Below are positions 5,186 through 16,289 of a stretch of 64,000 bases of DNA, in pieces. The first letter of the stretch is position 1. The number at the start of each line of letters is the position of its first letter. Below the pieces are notes generated by a model that saw only the letters and a program-made list of their open reading frames with translations, did not search any database and was not told the DNA's origin. Source of the DNA: Candidatus Saccharimonadales bacterium. Its GTDB lineage: Bacteria; Patescibacteriota; Saccharimonadia; Saccharimonadales; Saccharimonadaceae. Location of the stretch: NCBI GenBank assembly GCA_035697325.1, contig DASSDB010000002.1, positions 91,232-155,231 on the forward strand, given 5' to 3'. Both the position numbers and the translations under genes were made by a program.

Positions 5186-6487
5186 TTATAATCCTCCTAT
5201 AGCGTTTCTCACAAGCCACATATTTAATCCGGTAATTACAAAAGCAATCGAGAAAACGGTCGCTTTCATCCAGGGCTTATTCACAAAGCTTCCCATATAT
5301 TTTTTACTGCTCGTAAAGTAAATCAATGGCAGTACAGCAAATGGCAGCTGAATACTCAGAACGATCTGACTGAATATAAGAAGCTGGGATAAGCCAGATC
5401 CGCCGAATAAAATCGCAATACAGACCGCTGGAATGATCGCAAGTGACCGCGTGATCAAGCGGCGCAACCATGGCTTCAGTTTTACTTTTAAAAATCCTTC
5501 CAGAATAATCTGTCCGGCAAGCGTTGCGGTAACCGTTGAGTTTTGTCCCGAGGCAAGCAGTGCAACCGCAAAGAGGATACTGGCCGCTCCTACACCAAGT
5601 AGTGGCGCAAGTAACTGATAAGCTTGGTCGATCTCGGCTACGTCGTTATATCCCTTGGAATAAAATGTCGCGGCAGAAAGAATAAGAATCGCCGCGTTCA
5701 CAAAAAACGCGATTGAAAGCGCGATCGTCGAGTCGATTGTGCCAAACTTGATCGCCTCTCTCCTTCCTTTCTTATGGAGTCCGTGTGCCCGCGTTTGCAC
5801 AACGGCCGAATGCAAATATAAGTTGTGCGGCATAACCGTCGCACCTAATATTCCTACCGCAATAAAGAGCATTTCCTGATTAGTAAACAACTCTGTCGAT
5901 GGTACAAACCCTTGAAGCAGCGGTGCTATAGCCGGTTGCGAAAACAGCATCTCAAGCCCGAAGCAGACGACGACGGTGATAATGAGCGTAATAACCAACG
6001 CCTCAAGCCAGCGAAAGCCTTTCTTTTGCAAAAATAATAGCAGGAGGACATCGAGTGCCGTAATAATCACACCGATCGGAAGTGGAATATGAAAAAGAAG
6101 CTCTAACGCAATCGCTGTACCGATCACTTCTGCTAAATCACAAGCAATAATCATGATTTCGGCCATAGCCCACAAAAACTTTGTTACCCAGCTAGGAAGG
6201 TTCTCCCGGCAAATCTGCGCCAGGTCCTTGCCTGTCACCACACCGAGCTTTACGGTAAGATGCTGCAAAAACATCGCAAAAATACTTGAAATCAAAATAA
6301 CGAAGAGCAGCGCGTACCCGAACCGCGACCCACCAGCAAGATCGGTTGCCCAGTTGCCCGGATCCATATAACCAACGGCCACAAGATAGCCCGGCCCAGA
6401 AAACGCGAACATCTTTTTTAAAAACGAGGCCTTATCAGGAATTGTGATTGAACGATGGACCTCGCTTAAGCTTTTTGGTGCGCTCAC
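5186..6487 (-). CDS. mntH: Nramp-family divalent metal (Mn2+/Fe2+) transporter
   Basis: GPGYLVAVGYMDPGNWATDLAGGSRFGYALL signature; polytopic, 433 aa. Confidence 0.93.
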   Translation of the reverse strand: MSAPKSLSEVHRSITIPDKASFLKKMFAFSGPGYLVAVGYMDPGNWATDLAGGSRFGYALLFVILISSIFAMFLQHLTVKLGVVTGKDLAQICRENLPSWVTKFLWAMAEIMIIACDLAEVIGTAIALELLFHIPLPIGVIITALDVLLLLFLQKKGFRWLEALVITLIITVVVCFGLEMLFSQPAIAPLLQGFVPSTELFTNQEMLFIAVGILGATVMPHNLYLHSAVVQTRAHGLHKKGRREAIKFGTIDSTIALSIAFFVNAAILILSAATFYSKGYNDVAEIDQAYQLLAPLLGVGAASILFAVALLASGQNSTVTATLAGQIILEGFLKVKLKPWLRRLITRSLAIIPAVCIAILFGGSGLSQLLIFSQIVLSIQLPFAVLPLIYFTSSKKYMGSFVNKPWMKATVFSIAFVITGLNMWLVRNAIGGL

Positions 6488-7080
6488 TTTTTATTCTTTC
6501 CACTAATGATGTCCGGAACCGGCTCGCCAAACACGATGCGGGGAATATTTACTAATTGACGAGCTTCTCCATCAGGATACTGATGCTGATACGCAGCCGT
6601 CGTCGAACCGAATACAGCCTGCTCCCACTCAAAGCCAAGAAGATCCGCTATACGTTTTACCTCATGTTCGTTCGGACCTTCAATCTCGATATACGGGTCG
6701 AGCCACGGCCATTCATCCAGTACCACTTCAACATCGCCAAGTCGCCACGTTTCGCGGCGTGACTCCTGGAAAGATTTGTGAGTTAACCCGGCAAGCCGAA
6801 GGATTTCTACCATGCCATCAAAGTCGCTTACAGTAACCTCTAACTCTTCTACACCTGAAATTGCCGTGTGATCATGAAATTGTTTGTATGTCAGCGTCAC
6901 CTTGTCGCCTTCATCACGGACACGGATGAACGCATCTTTTGCCTCCAGTTCAGGAGGTTCGATAATCACACGGCGCATCAACCGCATAGGTTGTTCTAAT
7001 GTGGCACCAGCAGCCTTTAACCGTTCCCGGAGCTCGTCAAAATTAACGTTAAGGAATTTCACTTCGGTCTCGGTTTTCAT
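6484..7080 (-). CDS. CYTH-domain protein (CyaB-type class IV adenylyl cyclase / triphosphatase fold)
   Basis: N-terminal EVKF (ExExK) motif and acidic beta-strand pattern (EELEVTV, YIEIEG) typical of the CYTH tunnel fold. 4-nt overlap with mntH. Confidence 0.75.
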   Translation of the reverse strand: MKTETEVKFLNVNFDELRERLKAAGATLEQPMRLMRRVIIEPPELEAKDAFIRVRDEGDKVTLTYKQFHDHTAISGVEELEVTVSDFDGMVEILRLAGLTHKSFQESRRETWRLGDVEVVLDEWPWLDPYIEIEGPNEHEVKRIADLLGFEWEQAVFGSTTAAYQHQYPDGEARQLVNIPRIVFGEPVPDIISGKNKK

Positions 7081-11034: not shown

Positions 11035-12165
11035 TTATTCAGGTTGTGACGGCTCTCGGGCTGCTGCGTCCTTCTTTAGTTCTCTCATTTGGACGCCCAT
11101 TTCTTTAAATGCCCCCGAGTCGCCCCCTGCCTCAAATCCACGATCGGGGTGGAGTTTTGATTGCACCTTGCGCTCTACTTTACCTAGCTGAGCACTGTTA
11201 AGCGACTCTATGTCAGAAGTTTCGTAAAGGTTCTTGGCAACCGCTCGAATTTCCTCAGCGGCCTTTGTTACGTTTCGCTGCTCATACTCTTTATATGCGT
11301 CCTTTTCAGCCTCATCCCGTGTCACTTTCTCGCGGTAGGTGCGGACTTCGTCACTTTGAGGAGTGGCAGTCTGTTTTACTTCCTCGTAGGATTCAGTTTT
11401 CGGTTCGTAGAAGTCGTAGGTAGAACTCTCAGTACGAGGAGTACGCTTTGTATATTCATCTGCCTCATGTATGGTCGCATCAAAATAACTGGACCAATTA
11501 AAGGTACCGATGGGTTCGTCTAATATCTTCTGCGTACGAATTCGATCATAAGAGCCGAGATCTTTTATGGCGAACCCACCAAGATTGCGGCGATAGCTGA
11601 TATCTTGCCGCCCTTGTTCACGTTCCGCTTGTCCCACTTCATCAAGAAGACGATTAGTTTTACCGTCGATAAGCGGCACACCAGCCGGAAGCTTTTCGCG
11701 CAGTTCTTTGATTTGCAAGTCAGAAAGTTCTTCATGGACCAAGATTGCTGACGGAATTTGCGTCTCGCCGTCTACATCCAAGTGGCTGCCGTCGTACAGT
11801 AATGTAAGGTTTGGTGAAAGCTCATCCTTATTAATCGTTTGTCGCATATCCATATCGATAGATGACATGAGACTACCCATACCAAGCTTTCCGTAACCTC
11901 GCTCGCGTATATTGGACTTACTTTCTCCCTTTTCTTCTTGAGCTTCTCGAGCCAAATGCGAGAGTCCGGCAAAAGATTCTTGAGTAATTGAATTACTGTT
12001 CACCTCTACCATGACTGTGTCACGAGGAATAACGGCAAAATTACCTATGCCCTCAGATCCTGCTAAAAGCGAATGACGCAAAGTGCCCGAAGCAAAGGGG
12101 CTTTCCGTGTCGTAAAATTGGTAGGCTTCTCGATTGGATATGTTTATTTTTTCGCTGATGGGCAT
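11035..12165 (-). CDS. Hypothetical protein with C-terminal J-domain-like segment
   Basis: 376 aa. The C-terminus KVERKVQSKLHPDRGFEAGGDSGAFKEMGVQMRELKK has the helix II-HPD-helix III layout of DnaJ J domains. The N-terminal ~300 aa are unrecognised. Confidence 0.6.
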   Translation of the reverse strand: MPISEKINISNREAYQFYDTESPFASGTLRHSLLAGSEGIGNFAVIPRDTVMVEVNSNSITQESFAGLSHLAREAQEEKGESKSNIRERGYGKLGMGSLMSSIDMDMRQTINKDELSPNLTLLYDGSHLDVDGETQIPSAILVHEELSDLQIKELREKLPAGVPLIDGKTNRLLDEVGQAEREQGRQDISYRRNLGGFAIKDLGSYDRIRTQKILDEPIGTFNWSSYFDATIHEADEYTKRTPRTESSTYDFYEPKTESYEEVKQTATPQSDEVRTYREKVTRDEAEKDAYKEYEQRNVTKAAEEIRAVAKNLYETSDIESLNSAQLGKVERKVQSKLHPDRGFEAGGDSGAFKEMGVQMRELKKDAAAREPSQPE

Positions 12166-12223
12166 TTATAATAATATAATCACAAAATACCGCTTATGTC
12201 AATATACAGTTGGTTGTTGGTAG

Positions 12224-12270
12224 TTTGGGTCCGTCGTTCGCTGACAAAAATCACGAACGACGGACCCAAA
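12224..12270 (-). terminator. Perfect 17-bp hairpin downstream of the 12276-12449 micro-ORF
   Basis: TTTGGGTCCGTCGTTCG (12224-12240) / CGAACGACGGACCCAAA (12254-12270), 13-nt loop. No clear U-tract on either strand. Confidence 0.45.
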
Positions 12271-12275
12271 TGGCG

Positions 12276-12449
12276 TCAGAGCAAGTCACCTCCACCGTCG
12301 TATCCTCGGCAGCCGTCCTCGAAGACCTCACCCGGTGTTTCCGGGGCAAAGATCGCCCCGCCACACCCGTCGAATGAGGCACCGCCACCCAGCTCGCTAC
12401 CGAGCAGGGCATCGCCTGTCCTGGCAGCCTCATCATGCGTGGGTTGCAT
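12276..12449 (-). CDS. Unlisted 57-aa acidic Gly-rich micro-ORF in a GC-rich patch
   Basis: Below the track cutoff. AAGGGAG sits 7 nt upstream of the ATG at 12449. Candidate promoter TTGATC-17-TATTAT further upstream. Reads MQPTHDEAARTGDALLGSELGGGASFDGCGGAIFAPETPGEVFEDGCRGYDGGGDLL, stop TGA. Line 12281-12340 is 37/60 GC. Confidence 0.4.
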   Translation of the reverse strand: MQPTHDEAARTGDALLGSELGGGASFDGCGGAIFAPETPGEVFEDGCRGYDGGGDLL

Positions 12450-12532
12450 AGAGATACTCCCTTGTAGAGTTGATAGTCGGCCGACAAACCAAAGAGATAA
12501 TATACCGAATTACGGTTGTGATCAATACTCTG

Positions 12533-13579
12533 CTACTGTGTGCGAGCTTTAATAAAATCAACCACTTTGCTCATCGCCTCTTCGCCGTCCTCTGTATCAA
12601 GATTGAATTGGTACTCGTGCGGAAGCTTCGGTTGATGATCGTCGGCAAAGAACGAAGTAGTTACCGGTACATGCTTATCACTCAGTTCTTTTGCAAACGG
12701 TTTGGATTGGTCGTTGGTGAGTGGATCGTTGTTACCTCCGCTTATAAAGGTGGGCGGAAATTGAGACGTCACGTGATAATACGGAGACATCTGGCGAATG
12801 ATTGGATCTGAATAGTCCTTTGTGCCAGAGTATGCCCAGAGGGCCGTATCATCGCCCCATCCTATTATTTTGGGAAGTTCCGGCGCTGGTTGCGTAAGGC
12901 CGAACATTTTGTATATACCACAGAAAAGAATCACTCCTTTGAGCTGCGATGGTTTTAGTGTCGGTTCGATTCCTACCTCGGCTGCATAAAACGGATTGGT
13001 CACGATGGCTGCCATTTGACTAGAGATCTGGGCGCCGGCTGAATCACCAGCGAGAAATACCTTGTTCATATCTGCATGAAAACGGCCTTGATTTTTGTCA
13101 AGAAAATCGTATGCCTCATTTAGCTGTTTTAGCGGAGTGGGATAGGTTTTTTCGGGTGCAAGGGTGTAGTTAGGCGCGATAACAGTAAAGCCCTTGGCAG
13201 CCAAGATTTTAAAGTAGGTAGCCCAATCGTCTTTGCCGCCAGAAATCCAGGCACCACCATGGGTCCATATGACCACCGGTAGCTGTTTGTCCGTATTGCC
13301 TATATTTGATGGAAAGTAAACATCGAGAAGCATTCCGGTAGAATCGTATTTTTCATTGGCAAGCCGTGTTACGGGTTGTTGGGGAGTGTGCTTTTCGAGA
13401 GCCTGCTTAGACTTGGCGCTGTCTAAATCGAACACGGTTCGGATAAGCAATGCACCTGGCCATGGTGTTACCTTGAAAAGTGTCATTACAATAATAATGA
13501 CCGCAAGTATGCTACCCGTTATCCACAGCAGCTTCTTATGACGTTTATAGAAAGGAACGCGTTTTTTTGATTTTGCCAT
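12533..13579 (-). CDS. Alpha/beta hydrolase (HSL-type esterase/lipase), membrane-anchored
   Basis: HGGAW oxyanion motif (VIWTHGGAWISGG) and GDSAGA nucleophile elbow. N-terminal TM helix after MAKSKKRVPFYKRHKK. The ATG at 13579 is preferred over the track start at 13657. Confidence 0.85.
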   Translation of the reverse strand: MAKSKKRVPFYKRHKKLLWITGSILAVIIIVMTLFKVTPWPGALLIRTVFDLDSAKSKQALEKHTPQQPVTRLANEKYDSTGMLLDVYFPSNIGNTDKQLPVVIWTHGGAWISGGKDDWATYFKILAAKGFTVIAPNYTLAPEKTYPTPLKQLNEAYDFLDKNQGRFHADMNKVFLAGDSAGAQISSQMAAIVTNPFYAAEVGIEPTLKPSQLKGVILFCGIYKMFGLTQPAPELPKIIGWGDDTALWAYSGTKDYSDPIIRQMSPYYHVTSQFPPTFISGGNNDPLTNDQSKPFAKELSDKHVPVTTSFFADDHQPKLPHEYQFNLDTEDGEEAMSKVVDFIKARTQ

Positions 13580-13657
13580 ATACCCTCTTTTCCGTTTATG
13601 TTTATTGTAGAAAAAATAACGCGAAAAAACAAAACTTTGCCCTATATAGTTAATCAA

Positions 13658-13690
13658 AAGAAAAGAGCCCTAGTCTAGGACTCTTTTCTT
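13658..13690 (-). terminator. Hairpin terminator immediately 3' of tRNA-Ser(GGA)
   Basis: AAGAAAAGAG...CTCTTTTCTT stem. The minus-strand transcript then continues UUUUGAUU. Confidence 0.6.
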
Positions 13691-13779
13691 GGCGGAGAGA
13701 CAGGGATTCGAACCCTGGGTACCATTGCTGGCACACACGCGTTCCAGGCGTGCCAATTCAACCACTCTTGCACCTCTCC
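13690..13779 (-). tRNA. tRNA-Ser (anticodon GGA)
   Basis: Hand fold of GGAGAGGTGCAAGAGTGGTTGAATTGGCACGCCTGGAACGCGTG...GGTTCGAATCCCTGTCTCTCCGCCA. Long variable arm, anticodon loop CU-GGA-AC, encoded CCA. Confidence 0.9.
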
Positions 13780-13794
13780 ACAGGTTTTATAACC

Positions 13795-14583
13795 CTATTC
13801 TACCAGATTAAAATGACGTAGTGCATAGGTGAGGCCATCCGGCGTATCTGATACGGAAGGAACGACAAGATCCGCTTTGGCCTTAAGGAGCGGATCGGCA
13901 TTTCCCATGGCGACGGTTATGCCGCGCTGTCTCATAGCGTGGATGGCATCAAAGAGAGGGCCATCACCGGAGATATCATCTCCTATACCAACGGCCTTGC
14001 CATCGCTTAAACCGGCCAATTCAAACACTTTCGCAATTCCCGTTCCTTTATTAATTCCATTCACCGTTATTTGAAAACACCCCAAAGTCTCACTATTTTC
14101 ATAGCGCATAAAACGAGCCTGTACTTCGTTCATACTTTCAAACAACTCCTCGAGCCATGGCCCTTCTTCTAGAGGGTACACACCAAAGACAGAGGGCGAC
14201 TCCTCCGGATAATTAAAACGTGTATCGATACTGGCCGGATCTGTCTTGATGCGCGCCTCCAGAGTTGAAGTCGAAATTTCGATGCATTTTCTGCCGGCTT
14301 TACGCATGATTTCTGTTACTGTATCGCGCTCGAGCCAGTTTTTCCAGACTACTTCCTCGGTCGCAAGGTCAACGGCAGTTGCACCACTATCGAGGGAGCC
14401 AAGATCAACGAGACGGACACCATGCTGAGCAATTTTACGCATAAGGGGTAAGTTGCGAGCTGTCGCCGGAATAGACGGAACTTCGAGGGCATTTAGAGCC
14501 TCTTTTGAGGGAATCGTCTTTGTAAGATGGTCGTACGCCGTATTATCGACATCCCATGCTACCACATCAATACGCTCACTCAT
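13795..14583 (-). CDS. HAD-superfamily hydrolase (Cof/IIB-type phosphatase)
   Basis: DxD motif (VVAWDVDNTAYD) and C-terminal GIGDDISGDGPLF motif. Confidence 0.8.
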   Translation of the reverse strand: MSERIDVVAWDVDNTAYDHLTKTIPSKEALNALEVPSIPATARNLPLMRKIAQHGVRLVDLGSLDSGATAVDLATEEVVWKNWLERDTVTEIMRKAGRKCIEISTSTLEARIKTDPASIDTRFNYPEESPSVFGVYPLEEGPWLEELFESMNEVQARFMRYENSETLGCFQITVNGINKGTGIAKVFELAGLSDGKAVGIGDDISGDGPLFDAIHAMRQRGITVAMGNADPLLKAKADLVVPSVSDTPDGLTYALRHFNLVE

Positions 14584-15530
14584 TGCTCGCTACCCCGATA
14601 AACATTTGGAAGCAATCGGCGAACCACTTCGAGGTCTTTAGGGCGATGAAAACGAAGTTGTCCTTTATCTTCGGGGGCTTCTGAAAAAAGGCGATCGAGC
14701 GTCATTGGAAGACCTTTAGCATTTGTCACTTGCCTGTCGGCATCCGTAACATCAGGGGTGATGCGCCCCGTCGCCATATCGACGTACTGCGCGGCAGGGT
14801 GCTGCGTGTGCGCGCCAGCATCAGCGCGGAACACGGCATCAACATAGTGCTCGGCTCTATCTTTATACTGTTCAGGAAGCTCATTGCGAAGCATCGCAAG
14901 CTCACGCTCGGCATCGTACATTGCCTCTTCGAATGGCAGGTTTTTGTCGTGATATTTACGGATAGCCGTACCAACCATATCTCTTAAAGAAAGTTGCTCA
15001 ATAACTTGTTTTTCATCATCTGTTAGTACTTCGGTATGAGGTAGGATATTGCGTACAACTTGTAAATTGTACTTTTTTTGATTGCGACTATTACCGTCGA
15101 GAGCCACCCCATACGATTTGCCACCATCTTGAAATATAGTAGTGAACACACGAAGTATTCGATCGCGCGGTTCGGCCAGGTCTTGATCGAGCGTATGATT
15201 ATAAACATTTGTCACAGATTGATTATGCTCGCCAAGGCGGCGGGGGCGAGGTATTTTTATGTCACCAGCGAGCATCCATGCCATAAGAAGCGAGGTTGAG
15301 CCCAGCTTGATCATTTGGTTACCCGTTCTTTCGGCGGCTCGCTGTATATCGGCTTCGCGGGGCTGAGCCATATGCTCTTTAATAAAAGCATTGAATGTCT
15401 CCGGATCAACAAGCGGCTCGCCTTCACTAAGACGATGGCTGATTTCGCGAGTTATAGCCTCAGGAATTTCGCGCGGACCGGCCAGAATCTCTCTTGTCTG
15501 TTCCAAAGAGATGGAACGAGGTTTATTCAT
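14580..15530 (-). CDS. Hypothetical protein, 316 aa, GC-rich
   Basis: Long ORF with 4-nt overlap to the HAD gene and 8-nt overlap to the upstream ORF. No family recognised. Line 14761-14820 is 42/60 GC. Confidence 0.7.
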   Translation of the reverse strand: MNKPRSISLEQTREILAGPREIPEAITREISHRLSEGEPLVDPETFNAFIKEHMAQPREADIQRAAERTGNQMIKLGSTSLLMAWMLAGDIKIPRPRRLGEHNQSVTNVYNHTLDQDLAEPRDRILRVFTTIFQDGGKSYGVALDGNSRNQKKYNLQVVRNILPHTEVLTDDEKQVIEQLSLRDMVGTAIRKYHDKNLPFEEAMYDAERELAMLRNELPEQYKDRAEHYVDAVFRADAGAHTQHPAAQYVDMATGRITPDVTDADRQVTNAKGLPMTLDRLFSEAPEDKGQLRFHRPKDLEVVRRLLPNVYRGSEQ

Positions 15531-16182
15531 TGTTCACGCCCCTGTTATATACTTGCGTTCGTACGTTCGTAATAGAGGGAGCAAGCCGATCTTGATCCAT
15601 TTGCTCGGCAATGGCCAGGACATCCTCAAGGGCTCCATCGTTAAGTTCGGCAGCAGAGATATCAACAAACGTTCCTGGTTCATGATACATAACTGGATGT
15701 TTTGAATTTGGGAGATAGCGGATAGAAAAGAGGTCGGCTGCGGTTAAGCGAAGTGCTTGGCGCCCTGATTGCCTGAATAATGCCTCCACCTCTTCCATGG
15801 TGAATTCTTCGTTAGATTCATCATATTCACGACGACGACCAAGCGGGACTCGCGCTGCCGGGACATCTTCGGACCGGGGTACCCATAGTTCGGTCCGGCC
15901 AATACGATCAACGAGCTCCCCGTAGTCGTCCGCTTCAGGCGTGCCCCATGATTTACTTGGATCGAGACCAAATACCACTTCTTTTCGCGGTCCGAACCTC
16001 CCCTCACCTACAACTCCACCGATTATGGGCAGGTGTGGATCGGCAGTCTTTAACGCATGTCGAACAAGCCGGTCAAGCACTTTACCCCGATTAAGCTCTT
16101 GCCCCTCTGGTATTTCCAGTCGTGCTGAAAAAGTGTAATCAACCCCTTCACCAAGCGTATAAGAATGCTTTTCTGCCATCAA
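15523..16182 (-). CDS. Hypothetical protein, 219 aa, GC-rich
   Basis: First gene of the three-gene minus-strand operon. No family recognised. Line 15841-15900 is 41/60 GC. Confidence 0.7.
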   Translation of the reverse strand: MMAEKHSYTLGEGVDYTFSARLEIPEGQELNRGKVLDRLVRHALKTADPHLPIIGGVVGEGRFGPRKEVVFGLDPSKSWGTPEADDYGELVDRIGRTELWVPRSEDVPAARVPLGRRREYDESNEEFTMEEVEALFRQSGRQALRLTAADLFSIRYLPNSKHPVMYHEPGTFVDISAAELNDGALEDVLAIAEQMDQDRLAPSITNVRTQVYNRGVNNE

Positions 16183-16289
16183 ATTCCCCCTTTAGCTTTC
16201 ATCAAATGTATACTGAATACACTTATCATACACATAAGCATTTTGTCAAAGAGCCGCCCTGAGTTGTATAATTTACGCTACCTGGACGG

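Follow-up and report, generated by a model that had tools for sequence, protein, structure and literature searches.

A rare three-gene cassette in Saccharimonadales, with a divergent HD-superfamily protein, a predicted ferredoxin-like partner and a HAD phosphatase, as a candidate sequential dephosphorylation module

In the OxsA-type and archaeal MptA/MptB routes, an HD-domain enzyme (a phosphodiesterase in the archaeal case) removes part of a group that contains phosphate, and a further phosphatase gives the free alcohol. Saccharibacteria have tiny, host-dependent genomes, in which much of the accessory gene content is unannotated. The cassette described here consists of three overlapping genes next to a tRNA-Ser(GGA) gene (Table 1) in a 64,000-nucleotide (nt) stretch of DNA (hereafter the window; assembly GCA_035697325.1, contig DASSDB010000002.1, positions 91,232 to 155,231) from a Candidatus Saccharimonadales bacterium. 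The genome that contains the window amounts to 1.03 Mb in 9 contigs, and its close relatives are Candidatus Saccharibacteria/Saccharimonadales metagenome-assembled genomes (MAGs). The three genes encode a 219-amino-acid (aa) protein with a predicted tandem ferredoxin-like fold, a 316-aa protein that can probably be placed in the HD-domain superfamily on motif and profile evidence, and a HAD-IIB phosphatase. By analogy, their products would follow a stepwise logic similar to that of the OxsA and MptA/MptB routes, although the sequence relation is at superfamily level only, and the 219-aa partner is neither a T-fold nor a radical-SAM protein. With a confidence little better than even, we interpret the cassette as a rare accessory Saccharimonadales operon encoding a three-component sequential dephosphorylation module.

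An earlier note on this DNA had proposed from the tight coupling of the three genes that they form one functional unit, and this is now strongly supported by a conserved gene order in unrelated contexts and by domain fusions that link all three components. The order 219-316-HAD recurs at a syntenic locus (L005) and in at least five unrelated neighborhoods (L009, L012, L017-L020), the cassette having TsaE, RNase Y and NUDIX genes as neighbors in L009, and isochorismatase and DUF2130 genes in L012. In ten proteins (484-522 aa) an HD-like domain is joined to a C-terminal 219-like part, one of the ten being from a genome of the same taxonomic order (G384), and four proteins of 713-748 aa consist of an N-terminal HAD domain, an HD-like domain and a further domain. 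The C-terminal extension of these HAD-bearing three-part proteins (cluster C1) is not detectably 219-like (hhalign E 0.39), and the other fusion partner (cluster C2) is unrelated to HAD.

In G384, the gene for the HD+219 fusion overlaps an upstream His_Phos_1 gene by 1 nt and is translationally coupled to it, in place of HAD, with a second His_Phos_1 gene alongside; His_Phos_1 is also found upstream at the P0020 locus. Because His_Phos_1 replaces HAD in G384, the phosphomonoesterase step appears to be integral to the unit yet suppliable by an unrelated fold. The two His_Phos_1 genes of G384 (locus L072, 4889-5605 and 7120-7806) flank the fusion gene, and a gene for a GFO/IDH/MocA oxidoreductase is next door. 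Two loci (L007 and G002) lack the 219 gene, and their 316-aa orthologues are only 57-58% identical to the window protein, versus 93-95% for the flanking ABC gene and 77-87% for HAD; this divergence of the 316-aa orthologue where the 219 gene is absent suggests that the two proteins are co-dependent.

Mononuclear HD phosphohydrolases are characterized by H..HD..D and an Arg shortly ahead of the first His (PMC8177086), and HD phosphodiesterases need H..HD..H..HH..D (PMC8177086). The 316-aa protein belongs to a small unnamed family: 5.8 billion proteins yielded 29 clusters of close homologues. When 1.84 billion representative proteins were searched with a profile, 102 relatives were recovered. 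In the joint alignment of 121 sequences, to which all conservation counts given here refer, E101-H102 (LhEHtQaV) is conserved; H102, which would be the first ligand and lies inside RRLGEHNQSV in the window protein, is His in 110/121 sequences and lines up with the His of motif I in real HD domains. Position 134 is Gln in 76 sequences and His in 24, and the window protein reads Q134-D135-G-G-K138, so that the His-Asp doublet is half present, as QD; within the pattern D135-x-G137-K138, D135 is kept in 111/121 and K138 in 114/121. D237 (RADAGAHT), kept in 108/121, aligns to the Asp of CDAISAARPG in the HD domains of RNase Y. Further conserved positions in the family are Q151, G187, and D237-x3-[H/Y]-T242. 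In distant members these stretches are LxEHTxMV ... LALHDIGKP ... YYMCDAGAYT, the classical pattern of HD domains.

The family resembles mononuclear HD phosphohydrolases (YfbR, YpgQ, OxsA, SpoT hydrolase; PF01966) in the order of the EH..V His, [H/Q]D-x-GK and the terminal Asp, in an Arg that closely precedes the first His, in its predicted all-alpha fold, and in having distant relatives with canonical LHDIGK. Unlike these enzymes, it mostly has Gln at the first residue of the doublet, and it shows extra conserved Q151, N155, T242 and [ST]LD.LF, together with an obligate partner domain. The alignment contains no conserved H..HH block, which is a difference from the HD phosphodiesterases. Because its family combines the H..HD..D arrangement and an Arg before the first His with no H..HH block, the 316-aa protein would be of the mononuclear phosphohydrolase type; we name it a QD variant, and not a canonical member, because Gln replaces the His of the canonical doublet.

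The earlier note had described the 219-aa and 316-aa proteins as unassignable, and this stands insofar as neither has a Pfam, NCBIfam or PDB sequence match, whether searched as single sequences or as family profiles. It does not stand for the 316-aa protein, which can probably be placed as a very divergent member of the HD superfamily by conserved motifs and profile comparison. Six of eight distant cores align in register with Pfam HD at sub-threshold scores (E 0.0025-0.19; 12-18.5 bits versus a cut-off of 22), and one distant relative has a marginal match to the PADLOC Cas3-HD model (E 0.015). When the family profile was compared by hhalign with real HD domains taken from this genome and its relatives, it matched the RNase Y-type HD domain (E 1.4e-4, score 36.3, 199 columns) and a second HD subfamily (E 5.9e-4, score 31.5, 155 columns); two other HD subfamilies gave no hhalign signal. 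With 40 shuffles of the query columns each, the maximum scores were 17.6 and 15.4, and E never fell below 0.07. QDxGK falls on HDxGK in these alignments, and D237 on the terminal Asp in that to RNase Y. The AlphaFold2 (AF2) model of the 316-aa protein, built on the family alignment, is all-alpha, with a mean predicted local distance difference test score (pLDDT) of 94.3 and a predicted template modeling score (pTM) of 0.92. A terpene-synthase NSE/DTE motif at D279/S283/E287 was considered and discarded, since the model is non-helical there and E287 is not a conserved position.

Several further features were seen among homologues of the 316-aa protein. The orthologues from the two genomes without the 219 gene, P0012 (L007:6001-6945) and P0009 (L016:5001-5978), have a basic insertion of 10 residues (VSSVHGPKRTA) immediately ahead of the RxRRL motif. 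Two long proteins from Candidate Phyla Radiation (CPR)-like contexts (L022:8001-10736, 911 aa; L023:8001-12479, 1492 aa) have a C-terminal HD-like domain with LALHDIGK and no other recognizable domain; behind the gene in L023 come a HicA/HicB pair and the gene of a HAD_2-type hydrolase. Other distant HD-like domains (P0057, P0058, P0060, P0062, P0083 and 8 others; L074:5458-7095) are preceded by an N-terminal partner of ~300-400 aa with conserved [YF]-H-[GA] ... G-x-G-L-Y blocks. In 3 of 32 proteins this partner (ART-like cluster C2) has weak Pfam matches (E 0.006-0.012) to ART-PolyVal, the ADP-ribosyltransferase domain of polyvalent proteins; a PDB profile search with it found nothing.

The 219-aa protein has nine homologue clusters among the 5.8 billion proteins, none of which is named or has a Pfam domain, and a wider profile search with the family in a large database returned, among the matches listed, known members only. 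Its AF2 model (pLDDT 90.5, pTM 0.87) consists of two tandem beta-alpha-beta-beta-alpha-beta units. Foldseek found nothing significant for this model in PDB or BFVD; the top matches were to ferredoxin-fold, HemQ and IlvA regulatory domains, all with E > 1e-3 and TM < 0.3. In having a tandem unit that is C-terminal to the catalytic domain in fused forms, the protein is reminiscent of ACT/ferredoxin-like regulatory domains (IlvA, RelA/SpoT); it differs from ACT domains in that it shows no sequence similarity or significant Foldseek match to them, and in that its standalone forms carry an invariant RVPLGRRREY loop. The broad family keeps few residues, mostly structural, and this Arg-rich motif occurs in standalone forms only, for which reasons an accessory role, in substrate binding or regulation, is suggested. 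Based on the model, the 219-aa protein would represent a new small tandem ferredoxin-like family, without a relative by known sequence or fold, and would be the partner subunit of the HD-like protein. An MptA-like T-fold was rejected for it, as the predicted topology and the Foldseek matches are ferredoxin-like; PPR matches to residues 182-212 were dismissed as weak and without a supporting domain.

The third gene had been recognized as a HAD phosphatase in the earlier note, and Pfam confirms it as Hydrolase_3 (PF08282; 49.6 bits versus a cut-off of 20.9, E 5.7e-13). The four catalytic motifs (D13-x-D15-x-T, T/S-x-R, Lys, and GDxxxD) are present, as they are in the fused HADs (P0064, P0075, P0098, P0109). 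In these respects the protein is like the Cof-type HAD-IIB phosphatases (PF08282; e.g., YcsE, Cof and YbiV-like phosphatases of sugars and nucleotides), from which it differs in having no NCBIfam equivalog and in belonging to a distinct subfamily whose linkage or fusion is specifically with the HD-like domain. NCBIfam gave weak matches to HAD-IIB, Cof, sucrose-phosphate, phosphoglycolate, pyridoxal and YcsE-type phosphatases, none of which reached an equivalog cut-off (e.g., 36 versus 123, and 27.6 versus 220). The signatures of the subfamily are LDGGAT, PSVFA and VAMGNA; the fused HADs share them and align with the cassette HAD end to end. At L019:5939-6729 the cassette HAD is split between two frames (5939-6568 and 6571-6729; called product 228 aa), possibly owing to a frameshift, a truncation or an assembly error.

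The activities, their order and the substrate that we infer for this module are as follows. The 316-aa protein would be the catalytic core, with H102, Q134-D135 and D237 as its ligands, K138 in the QDxGK turn, and an Arg cluster (R95, R97, and R98) just ahead of the first His. The 218/219-aa protein would bind the HD-like protein, probably for substrate binding or regulation, and would perform no chemistry of its own. Together, the HD-like enzyme and its partner may cleave a phosphoanhydride or phosphodiester bond of some small phosphorylated molecule, perhaps a nucleotide-derived one, after which HAD-IIB (or His_Phos_1 in G384), as a phosphomonoesterase, would strip the remaining phosphate. 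By analogy with related enzymes, a nucleotide-derived substrate is plausible.

Several points weigh against this proposal. Foldseek of the 316-aa model against PDB found nothing significant and no HD structure (best E 0.19), and the Pfam HD matches remain below the gathering score. The window protein does not have the canonical His of the doublet, so hydrolysis could be altered or absent. One distant member of the 316-aa family (L014/L015) occurs alone, without 219 or HAD. The nucleotide idea derives from the usual roles of HD and HAD proteins and from NUDIX- and nucleoside-hydrolase-like neighbors, which were seen at two loci and are maybe coincidental. The 219-aa and 316-aa proteins might instead form a two-subunit enzyme of a new kind in which the QD site is completed by the Arg-rich loop of a new ferredoxin-like fold, with chemistry other than that of known HD hydrolases and, as its possible substrate, a host-derived nucleotide or ADP-ribose-like metabolite of importance to the epibiotic life of Saccharibacteria; this we regard as rather improbable.

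On the interpretation as a sequential dephosphorylation module, two genes that were "hypothetical" become a defined and testable module. The HD-superfamily branch to which the 316-aa protein is assigned has no Pfam or NCBIfam model, comprises ~100 representative clusters among the 1.8 billion proteins searched, and mostly has Gln for the canonical His; such a QD variant would be of interest to HD-domain enzymology. A new partner domain is defined for this branch, and two phosphatase families, unrelated to each other, can each supply the phosphomonoesterase step of the proposed module. Should the substrate be a nucleotide or a related metabolite, the module would bear on how these epibionts handle host-derived compounds.

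The close family was found in six GTDB species, all of them Saccharibacteria or MAGs, and the cassette in 1/401 evenly sampled genomes of the order Saccharimonadales, namely in the window's own genome. A cassette this rare does not encode ordinary enzymes that are conserved and syntenic throughout the lineage, the outcome by which the earlier note would have been contradicted. In three congeners (G001, G003, and G004) the site is empty, with the ABC gene, tRNA-Ser(GGA) and the esterase gene and no cassette; G002 and L007 have 316+HAD, and G000 and L005 have all three genes. The tRNA-Ser(GGA) gene follows HAD in L005, L007 and G002, and in the empty sites of G003 and G004 it is ~100 nt from the start of the ABC gene. 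A ~45-nt block with TTGACA (Table 1) occurs in the four cassette-bearing genomes only, directly upstream of whichever cassette gene leads; a separate block beside the ABC gene is common to all six genomes compared.

This sporadic distribution (1/401 genomes, and absence from 3/4 congeners), the variable contexts, and the faster evolution of the cassette than of its flanks would also be expected of a conflict or defense module, which would act against phage or competitors by nucleotide depletion or modification or by nucleic-acid cleavage, with the 219-aa protein as sensor or regulator. ATP- and IMP-depleting HAD phosphatases are known as defense effectors (PMC12715507). Among the distant HD-like homologues, some are fused to the domain with ART-PolyVal matches, and others form the C-terminus of CPR proteins of 900-1580 aa, one of them beside HicAB. 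However, the ART-like signal is weak (E about 0.01, 3/32 proteins, no PDB profile match) and concerns distant paralogues, not the cassette. PADLOC matched none of the three window proteins to any defense model, and PHROGs returned a generic phage HAD hydrolase (phrog_4901) for the cassette HAD and for the HAD domain of P0064; the PADLOC and PHROGs matches were otherwise noise, in two distant relatives. The cassette also has no recognizable sensor, nuclease or toxin-antitoxin architecture, and no mobile-element genes. We therefore consider a defense function unlikely, if deserving of some weight.

Quite unlikely, in our estimation, is a role in biosynthesis or salvage. On that reading the first two proteins of the cassette would synthesize a phosphorylated intermediate, for example a compatible solute, the precursor of a cofactor or a derivative of a sugar, from which HAD would release the final product. 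HAD-IIB enzymes often end such pathways, in line with the weak NCBIfam matches to sucrose-phosphate, phosphoglycolate, pyridoxal and YcsE-type phosphatases, and a swappable phosphatase partner fits a generic final dephosphorylation. The motif pattern of the HD-like protein is nevertheless that of a hydrolase and not of a synthase, and no transferase, kinase or ligase is tied to the cassette in any locus examined.

Very unlikely, finally, is a recently acquired genomic island that targeted tRNA-Ser(GGA): within a single genus the cassette is variably present at precisely this site, the cassette-specific upstream block is missing from empty sites, and L005 has a partial tRNA copy, but there is no integrase among the Pfam-scanned neighbor open reading frames (ORFs), no repeat of the tRNA 3' end and no flanking direct repeat, the cassette lies 5' of the tRNA and resembles its neighbors in GC content and in GC content at third codon positions (GC3), no tRNA-Ser is adjacent in L009, L012 and L017-L021, and differential loss accounts for the pattern equally well.

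The earlier note had raised such an island while seeing neither an integrase nor a tRNA 3'-end repeat. Both absences were borne out: no integrase was found among the eight main ORFs scanned with Pfam between 11.0 and 19.5 kb, and with <=3 mismatches allowed, the tRNA 3' end matches nothing but the other tRNA-Ser genes, located at 37.6 and 40.9 kb. The island idea itself is weakly supported, with the polymorphism of the site within the genus in its favor and the missing integrase and repeats, the base composition and the 5' position against it. In L005, the spacer between the HAD stop and the tRNA (L005:7737-7890) contains an interrupted, incomplete duplicate of the tRNA's first ~41 nt (GGAGAGGTGCGTAGGAGTGGTTG and ATTGGCACGCCTGGATACGC, ~65 nt apart), with a local alignment score of 33 versus a maximum of 24 in the shuffled null. 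In the window cassette, the best local alignment to the tRNA scores 27 versus a null maximum of 26, which is at chance level, and no copy like that of L005 is present. Because of the site polymorphism and the partial tRNA copy in L005, the site may be recombination-prone. The data do not separate gain from loss, and a classical tRNA-targeted integrative element is not supported. Short matches to the tRNA body elsewhere in the window (13752-13772/14015-14035, in the HAD gene, 18/21 nt; 13740-13754/15931-15945, in the 219-aa gene, 13/15 nt) are probably due to chance.

The layout of the locus is given in Table 1. The three minus-strand ORFs, with overlaps of 8 and 4 nt, and the adjoining tRNA-Ser(GGA) on the same strand were both found as described before. 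The start of gene 1 is more likely the ATG at 16179 (218 aa) than 16182, because a GGGGG ribosome-binding site lies ahead of it and a public protein collection has the 218-aa form. No clear -10 was called on the minus strand in the upstream block. The tRNA probably shares a transcript with the cassette or is driven from within the 3' end of the HAD gene.

Table 1. Coordinates of the cassette, the adjoining tRNA gene and candidate transcription signals in the window.
Feature	Position	Strand	Description	Basis
Gene 1, 219 aa (probably 218 aa)	15523..16182	-	Tandem ferredoxin-like alpha+beta protein (predicted)	ORF list
Gene 2, 316 aa	14580..15530	-	Divergent HD-superfamily protein, QD variant; presumed catalytic phosphohydrolase	
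Gene 3, 262 aa	13795..14583	-	HAD-IIB (Cof-type) phosphatase, catalytic motifs intact	
tRNA-Ser(GGA)	13690..13779	-	15 nt past HAD stop	ARAGORN
Block CTTTGACAAAATGCTTATGTGTATGATAAGTGTATTCAGTA	16211..16251	-	Candidate promoter/leader of cassette; only in cassette-bearing genomes; perfect TTGACA at 16244-16249	
Hairpin GAAAAGAGTCC-TAGACTA-GGGCTCTTTTC-TTTT	13656..13688	-	Hairpin and T-run immediately past the tRNA; likely terminator of tRNA + cassette transcript	Sequence inspection

The ORFs scanned with Pfam in this region (11.0-19.5 kb) comprise an esterase, ABC/FtsX, PGI, HAD and unmatched proteins. The genes of the 219-aa and 316-aa proteins had also been thought to be among the most GC-rich segments of the window, which does not hold at the level of genes: the GC contents of the three cassette genes are 0.503, 0.487 and 0.488 versus a window mean of 0.479, less than 1 standard deviation away and at the 68th-83rd percentile among same-size windows, and their GC3 of 0.42-0.45 is similar to that of the neighbors. 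Counts of 42/60 and 41/60 are indeed seen, each in a single 60-nt line (from 14761 and from 15841, respectively). The local GC maximum near the cassette (0.54-0.55 in 300-nt windows) is outside it, at 12150-12600, where a spacer separates the esterase gene from a 376-aa gene.

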